64,000 nucleotides of DNA from a virus. Its lineage: Duplodnaviria > Caudoviricetes. A program made the position numbers and the translations under genes. The DNA lies in IMG/VR virus record IMGVR_UViG_3300025858_000016, positions 30,010 through 94,009 of that record; one strand, written 5' to 3'. A model generated the notes under the pieces. That model had not been told where the DNA came from and made no database searches. It was given only the letters and a program-made list of their open reading frames with translations. Position 1 is the first letter of the stretch; each line of letters opens with the position of its first letter. Of this stretch, positions 31,576 to 54,454 are shown in pieces.

Positions 31576-31648
31576 GGTCTCGTAGCTCAGTGGATAGAGC
31601 AGCAGCCTTCTAAGCTGCGGGTCGTAGGTTCGAATCCTACCGGGGTCA
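31576..31648 (+). tRNA. tRNA-Arg(TCT)
   Basis: GGTCTCG..TAGCTCAGTGGATAGAGC; GCAGC-CTTCTAA-GCTGC; GGTTCGAATCC; CCA not encoded. Confidence 0.95.
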
Positions 31649-31666
31649 CAAGTAAAAACTAAGATC

Positions 31667-33715
31667 ATGAAATCAATAAAAATACAACAAGAACAATCTA
31701 ATATCGTAAAAGAATTAGTAGGTGAAATCCAGTATCTCAATGGAGAGTATCGAGCTGGTAATCCTCAGGTATCAGATGAAGAGTATGATGAACTAATTGC
31801 AAAACTTGCATCAATTGATCCTGAAAATTCTATTCTAAAGAGGGGGATTATTGAGGAACAGAAAGACAATTCTCGTAAAAGAAAATTGCCTATTCCAATG
31901 ATGAGTATGAACAAATGTAAGACATTTGAAGAACTTAAAAGTTGGATTTACTCTACACTTAAAAAATTAAATTACTCTGATGAAGAAATTCAGAATGTAG
32001 AATTAGTTTTAACTCCTAAATATAATGGTATTTCTTTATTATATGATTCTAAAAACTTAGAAGCATTTACTAGAGGAGATGGGGAATTTGGTCAGAAATG
32101 TGATAATCATTTCTTAAAAATGGATATAAATTTTTCTGATGCTCCGGATATTTCAGATGGGACTTTTACTATAGGAGAAGCTATCATACCAACTTCTATT
32201 TGGGAAAAAGAATTTAAAGGTAAAGTTTCTCCTACCGGATTACCATACAAATTGAATAATGCTACAGTAGCAGGTTTATTCAATTGTGATGAACCATCTG
32301 ATATGTTACAGTATGTAACATTTATGAAATATGGTACACCAGTATTACCTCTTACTAATAAAGTTGAACAATTAGAGTATCTTAATGATATTTCAACACT
32401 AAAAGTTGATTTTCTTAAATTAAAATTCAGTGATCTTACTGAAGATATTTGTGATTTGATTTTTAAAAAGAATTCTAAACTGCTTCCTATTGATGGAGTA
32501 GTTGTTGAATTCAATGATAGAGACATTCGAAATAAATTGGGAAGAGAGCCTAATGGTAACCCAGCATATGCTCGTGCATTAAAATTAGATAAATGGTCTG
32601 AAGAAAAAGATACAGTAATTACTGGTTATGATTTTCAAATTTCAAAACAAGGTAAATTAAAGGGGGTTGTCACATTTGACCCTGTACTTATTAATGGTAC
32701 AGATGTTAAACAAGCTACTTTTTATAATGTTAAATTTATACGTAAGTATTGTTTATTTCCTGGTGTGAATATAACAGTAAAGAAAAGTGGAGAAGTTATA
32801 CCTAAAATAGTAGCTGTTGAAGGAATTAAATTGCCCACTGGATCAAATAGTGTTGAAGAATATGAGGTTAGTAAGAGGATATTTGAGACTGTTAAAGATA
32901 AGAAGTTTCCCAGTGATCAGGATATTATTAAATACTTCTTATCAACATTCTCCACTTGTCCATCATGTGGTTGTGGTTTAGTTGATGATGATACTTTTGT
33001 TGAACGTATCTGTAGTAATCCTAATTGTAAAGATAAACTAATTTCTAAATTGGAGCATTTTGTTACTGTATTAGAAATTGAAGAAGTTGGTCGTCCTACT
33101 ATTGAGGCAATGTTTGAAGCTGGTATTAATACTTGTGAAAAATTATATACTGTGTCAAAAAATGATTTAGCTAATATTTCAGGTTTTGGCGAATCAACAA
33201 TTAACACTATCGTTTCCCAATTCACTAAAGTGAGAGAAAGGGGAATTTCACTTGCTAAGTTAATGTATGCATTGGATATTTTTGAAGGTAAGATTGGTGA
33301 AAAGACTACTCAATTAATATTTGATTCTCTTGATATTTTTCTCGAAGAGAACCAAACAATTGATAAACTAAATAAGATAAAAGGTGTATCTGATATTACT
33401 GCAGGAGTATTCTTAGAAGGACTTGAGAAAATTAGTTCTAACACACTTTCTCTTTATAACGTGAATATGGTTGAGACAATACAGATAGTTCCTTCTGGGG
33501 ATAAATACCATGGTTTCTCAGTATGTTTCTCAGGTTTAAGAGATAAAGAACTTGAAAAGGTTATTATTGATAATGGAGGCAAGATTTCAGATAGTGTGAG
33601 CAAAAATACTACACATCTTATTGTTGCTGATATTAATCAGCATACTAGTAAAACTGTCAAAGCCAAAGAAATTGGAATTTATATAATGAGTGTTGAACAA
33701 TTCAAATCCATATAA
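31667..33715 (+). CDS. ligA: NAD+-dependent DNA ligase
   Basis: YRAGNPQVSDEEYD, PMMSM, KYNG (KxDG variant), TRGDG, IDGVV, SGEVIP, Cys4 finger, HhH, BRCT. Confidence 0.9.
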   Translation: MKSIKIQQEQSNIVKELVGEIQYLNGEYRAGNPQVSDEEYDELIAKLASIDPENSILKRGIIEEQKDNSRKRKLPIPMMSMNKCKTFEELKSWIYSTLKKLNYSDEEIQNVELVLTPKYNGISLLYDSKNLEAFTRGDGEFGQKCDNHFLKMDINFSDAPDISDGTFTIGEAIIPTSIWEKEFKGKVSPTGLPYKLNNATVAGLFNCDEPSDMLQYVTFMKYGTPVLPLTNKVEQLEYLNDISTLKVDFLKLKFSDLTEDICDLIFKKNSKLLPIDGVVVEFNDRDIRNKLGREPNGNPAYARALKLDKWSEEKDTVITGYDFQISKQGKLKGVVTFDPVLINGTDVKQATFYNVKFIRKYCLFPGVNITVKKSGEVIPKIVAVEGIKLPTGSNSVEEYEVSKRIFETVKDKKFPSDQDIIKYFLSTFSTCPSCGCGLVDDDTFVERICSNPNCKDKLISKLEHFVTVLEIEEVGRPTIEAMFEAGINTCEKLYTVSKNDLANISGFGESTINTIVSQFTKVRERGISLAKLMYALDIFEGKIGEKTTQLIFDSLDIFLEENQTIDKLNKIKGVSDITAGVFLEGLEKISSNTLSLYNVNMVETIQIVPSGDKYHGFSVCFSGLRDKELEKVIIDNGGKISDSVSKNTTHLIVADINQHTSKTVKAKEIGIYIMSVEQFKSI

Positions 33716-33717
33716 AA

Positions 33718-33939
33718 ATGACAACAAAAGAGCTTAAAAAGAAAGTCTATTCATCAAATGAATATGATGCATTACCTACACCTTGGGATGTTAAAGTTGT
33801 TCAGGAGACTCCTATTATCATAGATAGAGATGGTAATGAAGTTGCACAGGTAAGAATTTATGATAATGAAATGAATCCTTTATCAGAATTAGAGATTGTC
33901 GCAAATGTTAAAAGAATATTGATGAGTAATACTAAATAG
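33718..33939 (+). CDS. hypothetical protein
   Basis: ORF track. Confidence 0.55.
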   Translation: MTTKELKKKVYSSNEYDALPTPWDVKVVQETPIIIDRDGNEVAQVRIYDNEMNPLSELEIVANVKRILMSNTK

Positions 33940-33941
33940 TC

Positions 33942-34175
33942 ATGAATCAGAAAGAAAGAAGAATTTTACAAGAGTTTCCTAAAAAACTTGATGAAATAGT
34001 TAATGAAACTTTTGGTGAAGAAGTTAATTGTACGACAAAACTTAATTTCTTTGAAAATATGAGTTACACTACCTATTTTGAAGCCAAAGGAGAAAGGAGA
34101 AAAGAAATTGAGGCTTTTATTAATGGTTTTATGAAGGGTAATGAGGAATTAAGAACAAGATTAGAACTTGCATAA
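33942..34175 (+). CDS. hypothetical protein
   Basis: ORF track. Confidence 0.55.
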   Translation: MNQKERRILQEFPKKLDEIVNETFGEEVNCTTKLNFFENMSYTTYFEAKGERRKEIEAFINGFMKGNEELRTRLELA

Positions 34176-34178
34176 AAT

Positions 34179-34649
34179 ATGAAAAAGATTTTGTTAGTAA
34201 GTTTAGTTTTAATGTCTTTAAATTCCAGATCTCAATCTATCGGACTTGATTTTATGATGTCCTCAAAAGGATCATGTCAGTATGGCATAAATGTCGAATC
34301 ATTGTATAAGTGCTTCGGTGTTTATGCCAATACTCTTATTAAAGAGGACATTAATGCTGATATTACTTGGAGACATGATGGAGTAACTAATTATCATGGT
34401 TGGATAATAGGGGTAAGTTTGGATACAGGTTGGGATTTATTTCCTATTATTTGTATTGGTGCTGGTAAAACTAAATATATTCATTATGATTATTATGTTA
34501 CTGATATTATTAGTAAGCCTATATTTGAAGTAAGATCAGCAATACGTCTTTCTAAATTAAATAAAAGATTATCTTGGATTGATTTAGAATTTGGCATTAA
34601 TACTGAGATGCAGATAAATACTGGGGTGTTAATAAGATGTAAATTGTAA
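34179..34649 (+). CDS. secreted/outer-membrane beta-strand protein
   Basis: Signal peptide MKKILLVSLVLMSLNSRSQ; alternating hydrophobic strands. Confidence 0.5.
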   Translation: MKKILLVSLVLMSLNSRSQSIGLDFMMSSKGSCQYGINVESLYKCFGVYANTLIKEDINADITWRHDGVTNYHGWIIGVSLDTGWDLFPIICIGAGKTKYIHYDYYVTDIISKPIFEVRSAIRLSKLNKRLSWIDLEFGINTEMQINTGVLIRCKL

Positions 34650-34678
34650 AGGGTTATAGCCAGTTATTCATTTCAATC

Positions 34679-34912
34679 ATGGATGATAAATTAAGGCAAG
34701 AGCTAAGATCAAAGAAAATTAGGGAAATGAAAAACCCAACAATCGTAATGAATGAAAACGATTTTGAAGTTTTCAAAAAAGAAATTGAATCAAAAACAAC
34801 TGTTGTAGTTAGCGACAATCCAACTTATGAAGGTGTACCTATAAAGACAAATAATATAATTCAAAAAGGCAATATTGTTGTGTACGATGATGTTTCTCAT
34901 AATTGGCTATAA
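34679..34912 (+). CDS. cassette 1 hypothetical protein
   Basis: Stop TAA lies inside the CTATAAC inverse core. Confidence 0.65.
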   Translation: MDDKLRQELRSKKIREMKNPTIVMNENDFEVFKKEIESKTTVVVSDNPTYEGVPIKTNNIIQKGNIVVYDDVSHNWL

Positions 34913-34993
34913 CGTTTGAGTGTAAAAAAACGTTTTAATGTTTTTTACACTTTGTTATGTGCCGTTTTAATAAAAAATTAAAATCAAGAAACA

Positions 34994-35383
34994 ATGGAAA
35001 CAAAAATCGTTTACAGAATTGAAAATCCAGAAGATAAAGACGGGATGTGGTACACAAAAGATGGTATTCTTAGAAAGAAAATACACATACTTTGCCCTGA
35101 TGGGATAGCAAAAGATTTTCCAATGCCTTTTAACCCTATTCACAAAAAAGACGGTCATATTTGGCAAAGTGCAGGAAAGAGTGCTGAAAATATGAATCAA
35201 TGGTTCACAGCTTCTGATGCAATAAACTTATTCAATAACGGCTTTAAGTTATTTGAATTTGAAACCACAATGTTTCAGGAATTAGAAAATGAAATTCTTT
35301 TTTGTCTAAAAGGAATAGTCAAACAAAGAGAAATTCCATTGGAAAATGTTTGGGATATAGCTTCGGTGATTGGTCGCCCCTAA
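34994..35383 (+). CDS. cassette 2 hypothetical protein
   Basis: 129 aa; stop codon at the start of the TAAAATGGCACATAAC repeat. Confidence 0.7.
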   Translation: METKIVYRIENPEDKDGMWYTKDGILRKKIHILCPDGIAKDFPMPFNPIHKKDGHIWQSAGKSAENMNQWFTASDAINLFNNGFKLFEFETTMFQELENEILFCLKGIVKQREIPLENVWDIASVIGRP

Positions 35384-35480
35384 AATGGCACATAACGAAT
35401 GGCTATACGTAATAGCCTGAAAGCCTTGATAATTGCGGGATTTGAACTTTAGAGAAGATTTATCTATAAAATAAAGTAAT

Positions 35481-35687
35481 ATGACATTAGAGGGAATGAA
35501 AGAAAAGATCCTTAAATGGAAGGATTTCTATGGTGGAGATATTGCTGATTATGAAAGAGTAAATAGAGCAAATTCTAAAGAAGAATTAAAAACAATTCTT
35601 GAAGAACATAGATCATTCATGGAAGACATGTTGTCTGATGCTAATTCTCATTTAGATAATTTTGAAAAAGAATTAGGGATTTATTAA
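35481..35687 (+). CDS. hypothetical protein
   Basis: ORF track. Confidence 0.55.
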   Translation: MTLEGMKEKILKWKDFYGGDIADYERVNRANSKEELKTILEEHRSFMEDMLSDANSHLDNFEKELGIY

Positions 35688-35696
35688 AAATAAACT

Positions 35697-36047
35697 ATGA
35701 AAGAAAAACAATTTAACTATCGAAAATTTTATGAAAAATACTTGAGTCTCAAACTTGAGAATAATGAAGTTATTCATCATATAGATTTTGATAGAAATAA
35801 CAATGATATACTAAATTTAGTAGCCTTGCCTAAATGGTTACATAATAAATATCATATGTTATATAAAATTCATATGGGAAAATATTTTATTGATATCTCT
35901 TTAAACAACCCAGAGTTTGGTAATTCTATTAACAAAGAATATTTGAAGTCTTTATCAAAAATGATAGATGTGATTGAAGAGTGTAGAGCATATATAGAAA
36001 AACGAAATTCTATAATCTATAATAAACATATTGAGAATGAAAAGTAA
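35697..36047 (+). CDS. HNH endonuclease
   Basis: VIHHIDFDRNNNDILNLVAL...HNKYH. Confidence 0.8.
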   Translation: MKEKQFNYRKFYEKYLSLKLENNEVIHHIDFDRNNNDILNLVALPKWLHNKYHMLYKIHMGKYFIDISLNNPEFGNSINKEYLKSLSKMIDVIEECRAYIEKRNSIIYNKHIENEK

Positions 36048-36408
36048 AAGAGTTTTAACAGGCATTTGGATACCTATAGAAATATGGGAAGATACTAATT
36101 TAACTAGGGTAGAAAGAGATGCATTTGTTGAGATTATGCATTTAAGTAAATCATCTGAAAAAGGTTGTTTTGCTTCAAACTCTTATTTTGCTAAGATACT
36201 TAGAGTGTCAAATGGAAGAGTTAGCCAGATAATTAGTCATTTGAAAGAAATGGGGTATATTTTTGTTGATATGCAATACAAAGAATATTCAAAAGAAATT
36301 AATAAAAGGTATATAAGAGTTAATTACGCAAAAATTTATATAGAAGGTAATGAAGAATATGAGAGATTACTACTAAAAAGATTGTCAGAAAAATATGGGG
36401 GTATTTAA
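36037..36408 (+). CDS. HTH protein resembling the N-terminus of phage replication initiators (possibly truncated)
   Basis: GIWIPIEIW, GCFASNSYFAKIL.VS..RVSQIISHL..MGYI. Confidence 0.7.
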   Translation: MKSKRVLTGIWIPIEIWEDTNLTRVERDAFVEIMHLSKSSEKGCFASNSYFAKILRVSNGRVSQIISHLKEMGYIFVDMQYKEYSKEINKRYIRVNYAKIYIEGNEEYERLLLKRLSEKYGGI

Positions 36409-36457
36409 TTTATTAAATGGGGTATTTAATTTATTAAATGGGGTATTTAATTTATTA
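36398..36457 (+). repeat. 21-bp tandem repeat, about 3 copies (iteron-like)
   Basis: GGGGTATTTAATTTATTAAAT at 36398, 36419 and 36440 (last copy partial). Confidence 0.9.
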
Positions 36458-36520
36458 TAAGGATAGAATATAATAATAGATAATAATATTAGAAAATAGG
36501 AGGCGCAAGCGTACATTTTT

Positions 36521-38191
36521 ATGTCATTAAAAGAATATACAATAAGACATCACCTAATTAGTTTTAAAACTGATTATGATATTAACTTCATCACCTCTAT
36601 TAAAAATATTAGAGGCAGAAAATATGATGCAATAAATCATATTTGGTATTGCCCTATTAATTTGATAAATAAAGATGATATTGAAGATTTGATTTTAAAA
36701 TTTGGAATTCTTTGTTCTAATAATAGCGATTGTGATTGGAACACATATTTACTTGAAAATATAGATCTTTTATTAGAACAAAAGATAGACATGTTAGAAC
36801 GGAAAATAGAAGAGTTGAAGTTACCTTGGCTCGTTAGAGATTATCAATTTAATGGTATTGTTTATATGTTATATGCTAAAAGGTGTATTAATGGTAGTGA
36901 TATGGGAACTGGTAAGACTTTTATGTCTATTATGGCTGTTGAAACTGAGAATTTATTCCCATGTATAGTGATATCTCCTACTTCAGTTAAATATTATTGG
37001 GAAAGACAATGGAAATTTGTTAATAAAAATAGATTAATATCAGTTTTGGAGAATAATAAAATTGATTTTAACTCTGATGTATTAATATTTACTTATGGTT
37101 CACTGGGTAATAAGAAAGAAGAAGATGACAAAGTAAAGATTGATATAAAATATAAAGAATTATTAAATATAAGATTTAAATCAATAATTTGTGATGAATC
37201 ACATAACTTAAAATCTAGTAAAACCATAAGATCTAAATCTGTAAGAAAATTATCTAAGAATATTGATTATAGATTTTTTCTTACTGGCACACTTATTATG
37301 AACAGGCCATCAGAGGTTATAAATCAATTGAATTTATTAGATCAATTTAGTGATATTTTTAACTGGAATTATTTTATTGATAGATACTGTGGAGCATATA
37401 TGTCACCATTTGGTTTGAATTACTCAGGGGCAACTAATACATTAGAATTAAATACTATACTTAAAAAATATTGTTATTATCGTGTTGATAAGAAAGAAGC
37501 ATTACCCGACCTACCTAATAGAGTTGAAACTGTGTTGAGTGTTGATATTGATAATATGAAAGAGTATAAACATGCAAATAATGATTTTATCGAATATGTT
37601 AGAGAGAATATGGGTAATATTAAAGCTGAATCTGCTTTACTTGCAGAAACTATTGTTAAGATAAATTCATTGTCATATTTATCAGCTATTGGTAAGATAT
37701 CAAATATAGTAGAATGGGTTGAAGATTTTTTAGAGTCATCTAATGAGAAAATTGTTTTGTTTGGTATACATACAGATATTATAAAAGAATTATCCAGGAA
37801 GTTTAAATGTGATTATATTATAGGAGAAGTAAGTCAAAAGAAACGTCAAAATATAATTGATGATTTTCAGACTAATGATAAACGTATTTTAATAATGAAT
37901 ATTTTAACAGGTGGATTTGGGATAGATGGTTTGCAGAATATTTCTTCTAATATGTTGATTTATGAATTGCCTTGGCGTCCTACTGATATAGAACAGGTTA
38001 TTTCTAGATTAGAACGTAGTGGGCAAAAGAATAGTATTGGTGTTTATTTTATGCTAGGCAATAATACTATAGATATAAAAATTTGGGACATTATTTTACA
38101 GAAAGATAAAATTACTAGTAGTGTTAATAAGGGTGTGGAATCAGATAATAACAATAGATACTTGTATAATCTTATAGGTTCTTATTTATAA
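36521..38191 (+). CDS. SNF2/HARP-like helicase
   Basis: RDYQ, DMGTGKT, CDESH, LTGT, WRP...QVISRLERSGQ. Confidence 0.88.
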   Translation: MSLKEYTIRHHLISFKTDYDINFITSIKNIRGRKYDAINHIWYCPINLINKDDIEDLILKFGILCSNNSDCDWNTYLLENIDLLLEQKIDMLERKIEELKLPWLVRDYQFNGIVYMLYAKRCINGSDMGTGKTFMSIMAVETENLFPCIVISPTSVKYYWERQWKFVNKNRLISVLENNKIDFNSDVLIFTYGSLGNKKEEDDKVKIDIKYKELLNIRFKSIICDESHNLKSSKTIRSKSVRKLSKNIDYRFFLTGTLIMNRPSEVINQLNLLDQFSDIFNWNYFIDRYCGAYMSPFGLNYSGATNTLELNTILKKYCYYRVDKKEALPDLPNRVETVLSVDIDNMKEYKHANNDFIEYVRENMGNIKAESALLAETIVKINSLSYLSAIGKISNIVEWVEDFLESSNEKIVLFGIHTDIIKELSRKFKCDYIIGEVSQKKRQNIIDDFQTNDKRILIMNILTGGFGIDGLQNISSNMLIYELPWRPTDIEQVISRLERSGQKNSIGVYFMLGNNTIDIKIWDIILQKDKITSSVNKGVESDNNNRYLYNLIGSYL

Positions 38192-38294: not shown

Positions 38295-38648
38295 ATGAAG
38301 ACTTTCAATCAGGTCGTATTGGTTGGTTATGTAGGTGTAAAACCAACAGAAAAACATTTTGAAAATGACACAAGGTGTGTAAATCTTGTAGTTAAGACTC
38401 GTGAATTTTTTGGTCCCAAAGAAGACCGAAAGGTTGAGAAGAATTTCCATAATTGTATTCTTTGGAATTCAATTGGAGATGAAGCTATACGGATTCTTAA
38501 CAAAGGTGACAAAGTTATGGTTGTCGGTAAGTTAAAGACTAAGAAATTAGAAAAAGATGGAGAGTTTATCTATAAAACTGAAGTTGTTGTATCTGAATGG
38601 ACAAAAATTGCAGATAACGTAGATTTTGAGAAAACAGATGAAGATTAG
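38295..38648 (+). CDS. ssb: single-stranded DNA-binding protein (bacterial OB type)
   Basis: NQVVLVGYVG, FHNCILW, KGDKVMVVGKLKT. Confidence 0.85.
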   Translation: MKTFNQVVLVGYVGVKPTEKHFENDTRCVNLVVKTREFFGPKEDRKVEKNFHNCILWNSIGDEAIRILNKGDKVMVVGKLKTKKLEKDGEFIYKTEVVVSEWTKIADNVDFEKTDED

Positions 38649-39108
38649 TATCTATTGTGATGGTAGCTGTGATCATCGTAGTAGACTTGGTGGGATAGGC
38701 GTTTATATGAATGATGGTGATAGAGAATGGTTTCTTAGTGAAGGTTACAGAGATACCACAATATCACGTATGGAAGGGTTTGCATTATTACATGCATTAA
38801 GGTCTCTTAGTAAAGAGATTGAAATAAGTGCTAATGTATATTCTGACTCTGAATATATTGTTAGATCATTCACAGATAATCGTTTAACTAAGTGGGAGAT
38901 GATTGGGTGGTCAGGAGTAAAGAATGTTGATATGTGGAAAGCTATCATTGCAGAGATAAAAAATCATCCATTACTAACTTTAACATTTAAACACATTCGT
39001 GGGCACCAGACTAACATATCTGGTGCCCATGTTTTTGGTAATGCAATGGCGGATATGTTAGCAAATTATAAAACAAAGAATATTTATTTATCAGATAAAA
39101 TATCTTAA
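38638..39108 (+). CDS. rnhA: ribonuclease HI
   Basis: IYCDGS, RME, YSDSEY, KNVDMW, HIRGH, GNAMADMLA. Confidence 0.9.
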   Translation: MKISIYCDGSCDHRSRLGGIGVYMNDGDREWFLSEGYRDTTISRMEGFALLHALRSLSKEIEISANVYSDSEYIVRSFTDNRLTKWEMIGWSGVKNVDMWKAIIAEIKNHPLLTLTFKHIRGHQTNISGAHVFGNAMADMLANYKTKNIYLSDKIS

Positions 39109-52849: not shown

Positions 52850-53031
52850 AAATTAATAAAGAAGAATTAGACAAATTGAGTATGGCAGATTTTATAAAGA
52901 GGAAAAAGGAGATTGAAGCACATAATGCAAAGTTATCTGGTCTGATGGTGAAATTGGTAGACACGATAGACTTAAAATCTATTACTCATAGCGAGTGTGC
53001 CAGTTCGACTCTGGCTCAGACTACAAAATAA
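52846..53031 (+). CDS. hypothetical protein reading through tRNA-Leu
   Basis: ATGA-coupled start; 3' half overlaps the tRNA. Confidence 0.4.
   Translation: MKINKEELDKLSMADFIKRKKEIEAHNAKLSGLMVKLVDTIDLKSITHSECASSTLAQTTK
52939..53023 (+). tRNA. tRNA-Leu(TAA)
   Basis: GGTCTGA/TCAGACT acceptor, TGGTGAAATTGGTAGACAC, ATAGA-CTTAAAA-TCTAT, long variable arm, GCCAGTTCGACTCTGGC. Confidence 0.93.
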
Positions 53032-54059: not shown

Positions 54060-54125
54060 TATTGTTATATTGTTGACGTTATTTGTAACTATGTTTGGAC
54101 CGGGGTTCGATTCCCCGCAGCTCCA
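54060..54125 (+). ncRNA. ssrA: tmRNA acceptor piece (permuted gene)
   Basis: GGAC-CGGGG-TTCGATT-CCCCG-CAGCTCC-A; upstream part is complementary to the coding piece. Confidence 0.9.
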
Positions 54126-54155
54126 CATAATTCGCCTAATGCGTAATCGGTGAAC

Positions 54156-54289
54156 AGATAATAAACGATGTTGTTCTCGAGAAGAACTGAGGAAAGTTTG
54201 ATCCAAGAAGTAACCCATAATCCAGGGAGAGGTGGTTTTTTATATTTTTTTATACCCACCAGATGATGCCAGGTGATCGTTTATTATCT
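54156..54289 (+). ncRNA. structured RNA nested in the tmRNA intervening segment (RNA-3)
   Basis: Perfect 14-bp closing stem, three internal hairpins, GAGGAAAGT motif. Confidence 0.6.
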
Positions 54290-54297
54290 TCTTATTA

Positions 54298-54454
54298 GGG
54301 GCTGACTGGTTTAGACAGCATAAGTTGTGGATAAAAGAGATATAACAGTGCAAAATAGATGGCAACATCTTTACACAAAAACAGGAAATGAGATTAGCTG
54401 CATAAGCTGAATTTTATTTCTGATTAGGGTGGCCTGTCTAAGATAGACCACCCT
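54298..54454 (+). ncRNA. ssrA: tmRNA coding piece; tag (A)GNIFTQKQEMRLAA at 54361-54405
   Basis: 5' GGGGCTG pairs with CAGCTCC including G3-U70; tag frame ends LAA-TAA inside a hairpin. Confidence 0.9.

Follow-up and report, generated by a model that had tools for sequence, protein, structure and literature searches.

Does a short run of small genes in the replication module of a phage, each gene closed in by its own inverted repeat, represent an array of mobile cassettes like those of integrons, and what could move such cassettes in a genome in which no integrase is found? The genes in question lie in IMG/VR record IMGVR_UViG_3300025858_000016, a 94-kb contig from an uncultured phage of activated sludge with approximately 29% G+C and every gene on one strand, the completeness of which is estimated by CheckV at 86%. 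Unless a locus name is given, coordinates refer to the window, the 64,000-nucleotide stretch of this record that was analysed. On one side the array is neighboured by a NAD-dependent ligase and on the other by an HNH endonuclease, a replication-initiator-like gene and an SNF2 helicase. A blastn search with 33700-36100 against a phage collection returned no matches, and searches for relatives with ORF1 and with the 156-aa gene upstream of it found no viral relative.

Several other features of this phage were recorded along the way. The HNH endonuclease gene (35697-36047) lies 300 nt downstream of the array, and the accessory regions of Polaribacter phage P12002L likewise have HNH genes nearby. 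Three tandem 21-nt repeats (36398-36460), which resemble the iterons of a replication origin, separate the replication-initiator-like ORF (36031-36408) from the SNF2 helicase gene. The phage also encodes a tRNA-Arg (31576-31649), a tRNA-Leu (52939-53024) and a circularly permuted tmRNA (54066-54405; Rfam RF04321, 62.3 bits, gathering score 47), the last of which is called by ARAGORN too, with the tag peptide GNIFTQKQEMRLAA.

Two boxed genes and the hairpin between them

Features of the two-cassette region, in window coordinates
Feature	Position	Strand	Description
Cassette 1	34653-34913	+	Boxed ORF1, without a hairpin of its own
5' arm, cassette 1	34653-34667	+	GTTA core, 6-nt specific box, G at arm position 11
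ORF1 (cargo)	34679-34912	+	77 aa
3' arm, cassette 1	34899-34913	+	Ends in TAAC core; encodes the C-terminus HNWL and the stop codon
attC-like hairpin	34910-34957	+	48 nt from TAAC to GTTA; between the two units
Cassette 2 as mobile module (best model)	34914-35396	+	Hairpin, 5' arm, ORF2, 3' arm, terminal TAAC
5' arm, cassette 2	34954-34969	+	GTTA core
ORF2 (cargo)	34994-35383	+	129 aa; matches phrog_23161 (function unknown)
3' arm, cassette 2	35381-35396	+	TAAC end; ORF2 stop codon at the inner edge of the arm
Further hairpin site, remnant	35397-35425	+	G, 3 nt, 6-bp stem-loop (35401-35417), no closing GTTA

The arms of cassette 1 pair at 14 of 15 positions and those of cassette 2 at 15 of 16, and in both pairs the sole position that is not Watson-Crick is a G in the 5' arm opposite a T in the 3' arm. 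Cassette 1 begins 3 nt after the stop codon of the upstream gene (34647-34649), with no hairpin site before its 5' arm. Its cargo, ORF1, belongs to no Pfam family and no PHROG family but has 39 homologues in metagenomes, with identities of up to 91%. Nearly all of these homologues retain the HNWL-stop encoded by the 3' arm, and those that are extended at the N-terminus read through the same 5' arm, in two frames, while the sequence before this arm is of at least four unrelated types. The arms of the ORF1 homologues were inferred here from protein extensions and not from DNA flanks. ORF2 has no match in a local Pfam scan; the protein-atlas clusters nearest to it (feature score 0.96) contain the T4 Y00F domain (PF26820), a family of unknown function, a likeness that can be taken only as a possible lead.

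In the hairpin between the two units, an 11-nt loop caps a stem of 12 bp, which a bulge of 3 nt on the 5' side separates from the 5-bp base (TAACG/TGTTA); the fold has an energy of -7.9 kcal/mol (z = -5.1 relative to shuffles, DNA parameters). That it fits an attC was judged by folding and by eye, without an attC covariance model; its build matches that of a true integron site, and both build and loop motif are shared with sites in another phage contig, G002, and in Polaribacter phage P12002L. A search of the + strand at the hairpin turned up neither promoter-like nor terminator-like signals, and an Rfam scan of 33000-37000 at E <= 1 returned nothing. When cassette 2 is closed into a virtual circle, the junction forms one continuous hairpin of -21.2 kcal/mol (z = -10.2).

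The original prediction, made from the sequence alone, had described this region as an integron-like cassette array, and its structural claims were borne out. All of its coordinates and strings are present in the sequence, and the claim that each 3' repeat complements the 5' end of its own unit holds for both units of the window and for 171 distinct units elsewhere. The proposed attC-like hairpin folds as expected, and the first stop codon (TAA, 34910-34912) does fall inside the inverse core, TAAC. The description of the second site as truncated is fair, as only its 6-bp hairpin is left, without a GTTA, and the sequence after the second TAAC folds no better than shuffles (z = -0.8).

Inverted repeats are not rare in this DNA. 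With at least 15 nt, at most one mismatch and arms 60-700 nt apart, the window holds 14 against 5.7 +/- 2.0 in dinucleotide shuffles, and a lone inverted repeat of such size is unremarkable. Another 15-nt repeat with one mismatch (38148-38162 / 38647-38661), for instance, spans a 117-aa ORF (38295-38648), lacks the GTTA...TAAC orientation and is perhaps a product of chance. What cannot be put down to chance is the occurrence of two adjacent one-ORF boxes with common GTTA and TAAC cores and a G:T at arm position 11. Across the 94-kb record, the only GTTA...TAAC pairs with G+C-containing boxes are the two window units, and the only complete TAAC-hairpin-GTTA site is that at 34910-34957; the hairpin criterion by itself yields 0-6 sites in shuffled genomes. 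The absence of an integrase, which had been claimed for the window, held and extends to the whole 94-kb record, where a search with PF00589 (Phage_integrase family) at E <= 1 gave no match.

Recurrence of the unit grammar next to a Xer-like recombinase

Homologues of ORF2 with 84-93% amino-acid identity are found in phage contigs that have no other detectable gene in common with this genome, indicating that ORF2 has moved horizontally. In two of the six contigs with a homologue, the gene is boxed by GTTA...TAAC arms in which the inner boxes are different yet complementary; a profile built from the homologues gained just one further locus. Scanning for the array pattern, GTTA plus a box followed by the complementary box plus TAAC, revealed that unrelated IMG/VR phages hold rows of 5-10 such units. 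One of them, G001, carries eight consecutive units and two more on a 43.9-kb contig that is rated complete and has no integrase; G004 carries five units and G002 three to four. The units follow the grammar GTTA-N6-G...T-N6'-TAAC and are separated by TAAC-hairpin-GTTA sites. Irrespective of sequence, all inter-unit spacers (48-131 nt) are built from a TAACG/TGTTA base, a 3-nt bulge, a stem of 18-22 bp and a large loop.

Pairing between the arms extends beyond the stretch by which the units were selected. Arm position 11 is G:T in 145 of the 171 distinct units, and positions 12-15, which played no part in unit selection, are Watson-Crick in 89, 80, 78 and 62% of them, respectively. Wobble pairs at positions 12-15 of these units show no strand bias, so the folding strand remains undecided; positions 5-10 are biased by the unit filter and cannot be used for this test.

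Stop codons in the arrays end either 1 nt or approximately 13 nt before the end of TAAC, and in several units the start codon is found within the hairpin loop. Given start codons in the loop and stop codons in or beside TAAC, the sites must be transcribed and, in part, translated. Many cargo genes encode small proteins of unknown function; others encode an RNA-repair-type HAD domain, a protein resembling RNA ligases and, judging by motifs recognised by eye, methyltransferase-like proteins. In three units (L026:1321-1392, L029:2716-2821 and L031:202-305), the stretch bounded by GTTA and TAAC is so short, at 72-106 nt, that no gene would fit; these could be empty cassettes or remnants of sites.

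The arrays are linked to a recombinase. In G002, a 270-aa tyrosine recombinase starts 31 nt after the last TAAC on the same strand. Its best NCBIfam match is a XerA-type model (179 bits, cut-off 220), and against the integron-integrase model it reaches 158 bits (cut-off 265), its best alignment extending to about position 205 of 315. Four further array-linked recombinases have family scores like those of the G002 enzyme; the array-linked enzymes are 250-270 aa long and reach 137-160 bits on TIGR02249 (cut-off 265), and align with no more than approximately the first 160-210 of the 315 model positions. A search of viral contigs with the G002 recombinase gave 80 loci, from which 61 distinct loci, those with recombinase homologues of at least ~35% identity, were used for unit counts. 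In these, 135 perfect units lie directly upstream of the recombinase compared with 4 downstream, nine control cores give 1-13 upstream, and wherever 900 bp or more of upstream sequence is available (51 loci), one unit or more is present. The most distant or partial recombinase matches have almost no units. No strict units were found upstream of the nearest bacterial homologues (45-54% identity, all Bacteroidota), several of which have less than 1 kb of upstream sequence. At L050:6001-6807 the recombinase homologue has an in-frame stop codon, yet eight units lie upstream of it, possibly a decayed enzyme next to an intact array.

The distance from the last TAAC to the recombinase start is mostly 31-110 nt, and this interval contains a conserved terminal motif instead of a hairpin. 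The motif (L021-L082) comprises TAAC, then a TAYNATATAT-like sequence and then an AAC-rich stretch, and may be the primary insertion site, a counterpart of attI. Neither the terminal motif nor a recombinase gene follows the last TAAC of the window.

Insertion at the TAAC core and mobility of the window's units

Two otherwise identical recombinase loci record the gain or loss of one cassette. L034 equals L036 plus a 797-nt insert at the terminal TAAC, in which a hairpin is followed by a gene between its 5' arm and a TAAC-terminated 3' arm; the flanks are 100% identical over 118 nt on the left and 377 nt on the right, and a CATAAC repeat is found at both ends of the insert. L033 and L035 carry a third, different last cassette, and their identity to L034 and L036 begins exactly at TAAC, while L033 and L035 diverge from each other exactly at the TAAC before the hairpin of their last cassette. 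These breakpoints place the crossover inside or right after TAAC, in the core that closes a unit on its 3' side and reads G/TTA on the complementary strand. With the crossover at the 3' TAAC, the hairpin must travel with the ORF that follows it and not with the ORF before it.

The distribution of the 6-nt boxes assigns the hairpin to the same gene. There are 98 kinds of box in the 171 units, and 272 pairs of units have the same box compared with 28 expected, with unrelated genes in 250 of these 272 pairs. Where the box is the same and the genes are unrelated, the upstream hairpins are at least 70% identical in 17.8% of pairs, against 1.8% of other pairs, and the downstream hairpins in only 2.1%, against 1.6%. 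As boxes go with the upstream and not the downstream hairpin, hairpin and arms constitute one site that is split around the gene when integrated. A model in which ORFs are inserted into the loops of pre-existing hairpins was dropped, as site families travel as an upstream hairpin plus arms.

Movement of the window's own units was examined in Logan contigs from four runs (X3, X4, X5 and X7) of four studies, which were compared with 34300-35800; only assembled contigs were used, and neither parts of the window without contig cover, such as ORF1, nor further runs with small shares were counted as evidence. In X4, X5 and X7, from three studies, one contig each aligns with the window solely between 34953 and 35394-35397, with approximately 97-98% identity. 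This segment is the complete ORF2 unit, bounded by its two cores, and is flanked by foreign sequence on either side. X3, from the fourth study, carries the ORF2 unit in pieces, and in contigs of all four runs the match sets in at 34953. To the left of the unit, all four runs have one common hairpin that is unlike that of the window; to the right, the flanks differ among the four. Within X3, a different cassette end is joined at TAAC to the 35397-35424 sequence of the window, and in another X3 contig the upstream gene and the 5' arm of cassette 1 match the window, with unrelated sequence starting right after the arm. These X3 variants suggest recent exchange at these cores in relatives of this phage. 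ORF2 is known with three different arm sets, and, given these and the differing upstream hairpins, exchange on the GTTA side or replacement of the whole site must also happen. Both units of the window are therefore mobile, on the evidence of assembled contigs and homologues and without read-level or experimental evidence of excision in this phage.

These results bear directly on the remaining claims of the original prediction. It had proposed that the phage gains accessory genes by cassette recombination, which the moved ORF2 unit and the L034/L036 insertion support, and had placed integration at G/TT, which needs correction, as the crossover maps to the 3' TAAC core. It would have been refuted had homologues lacked the boundaries and had relatives shown no precise presence or absence of a cassette. 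Instead, ORF1 homologues retain both arms, the ORF2 unit recurs elsewhere, its boundaries unchanged and its flanks different on either side, and presence versus absence of a single cassette at the core is seen between L034 and L036. The assignment to integron cassette grammar is supported as well, but the enzyme is not an IntI and the genes face the recombinase.

A probable orphan array, its rivals and known systems

We consider it likely (probability about 0.8) that the region is a short orphan array, in which two mobile cassettes of one gene each are part of an integron-like site-specific recombination system of phages, with Bacteroidota as the probable host phylum of that system. Because the 94-kb record contains no recombinase, the array is classed as an orphan, similar to a CALIN (a cluster of attC sites lacking an integrase). 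In the proposed mechanism, a cassette would comprise a hairpin site, the GTTA core, a specific 6-nt box, the gene, the complementary box and the TAAC core. In a circle or a single folded strand, both arms and the hairpin would stack as one long imperfect hairpin, the equivalent of an integron attC; that a folded single strand is the substrate is an inference. In related phages, the Xer-like tyrosine recombinase downstream of the array would most likely insert and remove cassettes via a crossover inside TAAC, catalysis that is likewise inferred. In the present phage, the cassettes may have been acquired in the past or may be moved in trans by a co-infecting phage or the host, and the most likely history would be acquisition by such a system with the enzyme supplied in trans, itself only inferred, or lost. 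This reading is limited by the lack of a recombinase and of a terminal site in a record that is 86% complete, and by the presence of only one complete hairpin site.

Three other explanations were weighed. The stems might act in RNA, a long-range helix closing each gene's transcript and hairpins setting it apart from its neighbour for processing (e.g. by RNase III), stability or translational control, with gene mobility a by-product of ordinary recombination. In favor of this, the mismatch at arm position 11 is a G:T on the coding strand and would be a G-U pair in RNA, many hairpins have G:T pairs on the coding strand, and the positions of start and stop codons show the sites to be transcribed and partly translated. 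However, an RNA function leaves unexplained the one-sided linkage to a recombinase, the TAAC-bounded insertion between otherwise identical contigs and the breaks in homology at cores; moreover, wobble pairs outside position 11 are not biased to the coding strand, and neither an Rfam family nor a terminator-like site was found at the hairpin. We therefore regard it as unlikely as the sole explanation, although an RNA role in addition to the DNA role remains possible. Alternatively, the units could be ordinary bacterial integron cassettes with canonical attC sites, taken up by the phage out of a host integron and moved by a host IntI, and the array a fragment of a classical CALIN. The core and hairpin grammar of a true chromosomal integron (L125, below) is indeed equal, and HattCI called a P12002L site of the same build and loop an attC (PMC9892861, Table S3). 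Against this stand the opposite orientation of the genes relative to the sites, the recurrence of the units across many phage contigs, an adjoining enzyme that is Xer-like (137-160 bits versus 409 bits in L125, cut-off 265), and the absence of verified IntI1 junctions for that P12002L site (P12002L_attC1; PMC9892861); gene orientation, linked enzyme and this published negative result make capture by IntI unlikely.

Least likely of all, the arms could be the terminal repeats of non-autonomous, MITE-like transposons, or chance repeats in AT-rich DNA. Terminal inverted repeats are a hallmark of DNA transposons, and 15-nt inverted repeats with one mismatch arise by chance approximately six times per 64 kb. 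Unlike transposase-binding ends, however, the inner 6 nt vary yet stay complementary while the cores are invariant; there are no target-site duplications, and inserts bear a hairpin on one side only. Chance is excluded by recurrence in 171 units and by the 135:4 asymmetry around the recombinase.

Beyond the orphan-array reading, a bolder one can be put forward, which we favor by a narrow margin: that Bacteroidota phages own an analogue of the integron, in which a Xer-like enzyme captures single-gene cassettes and orphan arrays are serviced in trans during co-infection. Its parts would include a site that folds on the coding strand, is split around the gene and is able to supply start and stop codons, the passage of cassettes between unrelated phages, and an integron design that arose, or was adopted, outside the IntI family. 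If this is true, pairs with the same site and different genes, or the same gene and different sites, record the making of new cassettes, a question that is open for integrons. As for the orphan array itself, its two genes move as separate modules between viromes of wastewater, bioreactors, digesters and groundwater, and cassette exchange offers a concrete explanation of how phage accessory regions come to be, in part, mosaic. The system also provides many paired examples of how genes become cassettes, as well as compact natural recombination sites. In the full-text literature that was searched, of which coverage was incomplete, we found no account of boxed units, of long arrays in phages or of the linked Xer-like enzyme.

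Among known phage systems, the promoter-stem-loop cassettes (PeSLs) of T4-type phages are reported to be stem-loop elements that flank small accessory genes; they reportedly consist of direct repeats that carry an early promoter, with homologous recombination as their proposed mode of action (Arbiol et al. 2010). Both systems have small accessory genes in plastic phage regions, recurrent short stem-loop flanks and suspected modular shuffling. In contrast to PeSLs, the flanks of the window type are gene-specific inverted repeats with fixed cores, have no promoter- or terminator-like signal and are linked to a site-specific recombinase.

A closer parallel is provided by the integrase-less attC clusters (CALINs) that Qi, Rajabal, Ghaly, Tetu and Gillings (2023; PMC9892861) described in phages, including Polaribacter phage P12002L. 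Their Table S3 lists P12002L_attC1, a published attC of the TAAC-hairpin-GTTA type that shares its loop motif with 34910-34957; of six sites, it alone lacks verified IntI1 x attI1 junctions. As in the window, integrase-less attC-like sites are found there between accessory genes (methyltransferases) of a virulent Bacteroidota phage. The CALIN sites differ in having been detected with integron tools and tested with IntI1, and we found no per-gene covarying arms, long arrays or linked Xer-like recombinase in the parts of that paper that were consulted. Our strict unit scan of P12002L found none in its accessory-gene region and one lone minus-strand match elsewhere; the grammar becomes visible in this phage only when intergenic stretches are read and folded. 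The window itself would fall short of the two predicted sites required in PMC9892861: only its site at 34910-34957 is complete, that at 35397-35425 is a truncated remnant, and an integrase is lacking.

Integrons are a textbook device of bacterial gene capture, held to depend on one dedicated clade of integrases. For direct comparison we used L125 (2003-6915), a canonical chromosomal integron in a gammaproteobacterial MAG, the integrase of which scores 409 bits on TIGR02249. The L125 cassettes, upstream of a + strand integrase, have the same cores, self-complementary ends and TAACG-bulge-stem-TGTTA build, and their detection by the GTTA...TAAC unit scan serves as a positive control for that scan. 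Like integron cassettes, those of the phage arrays are promoter-less single-gene units whose sites, judged by folding and by eye, are imperfect hairpins of 48-131 nt with AAC/GTT-containing cores. In both systems, a cassette has a 5' end that is complementary to the core region at its own 3' end, and the recombinase gene has the array on its 5' side. As in integrons, cassettes are added at the recombinase-proximal end by crossover at the core, which is shown in relatives and not in this genome. Phage site families are re-used with unrelated genes, and the attC families of chromosomal integrons are re-used in the same way. The differences are equally clear. The phage-linked enzyme is Xer-like and below the integron-integrase cut-off, the phage arms are 12-16 nt long with a conserved G:T at position 11 in place of a 7-nt R box, and the genome of the window has neither a recombinase nor a terminal site. 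In L125, genes are on the strand opposite the integrase and read away from it, the canonical orientation, whereas phage cassette genes read towards the recombinase, so that the hairpin lies 5' of its own gene and can supply its start codon. On this comparison, the phage arrays are integron-like in site, geometry and insertion point, and unlike integrons in gene orientation, arm length and enzyme: a cassette logic like that of integrons is present in phages, with a different recombinase and reversed genes.
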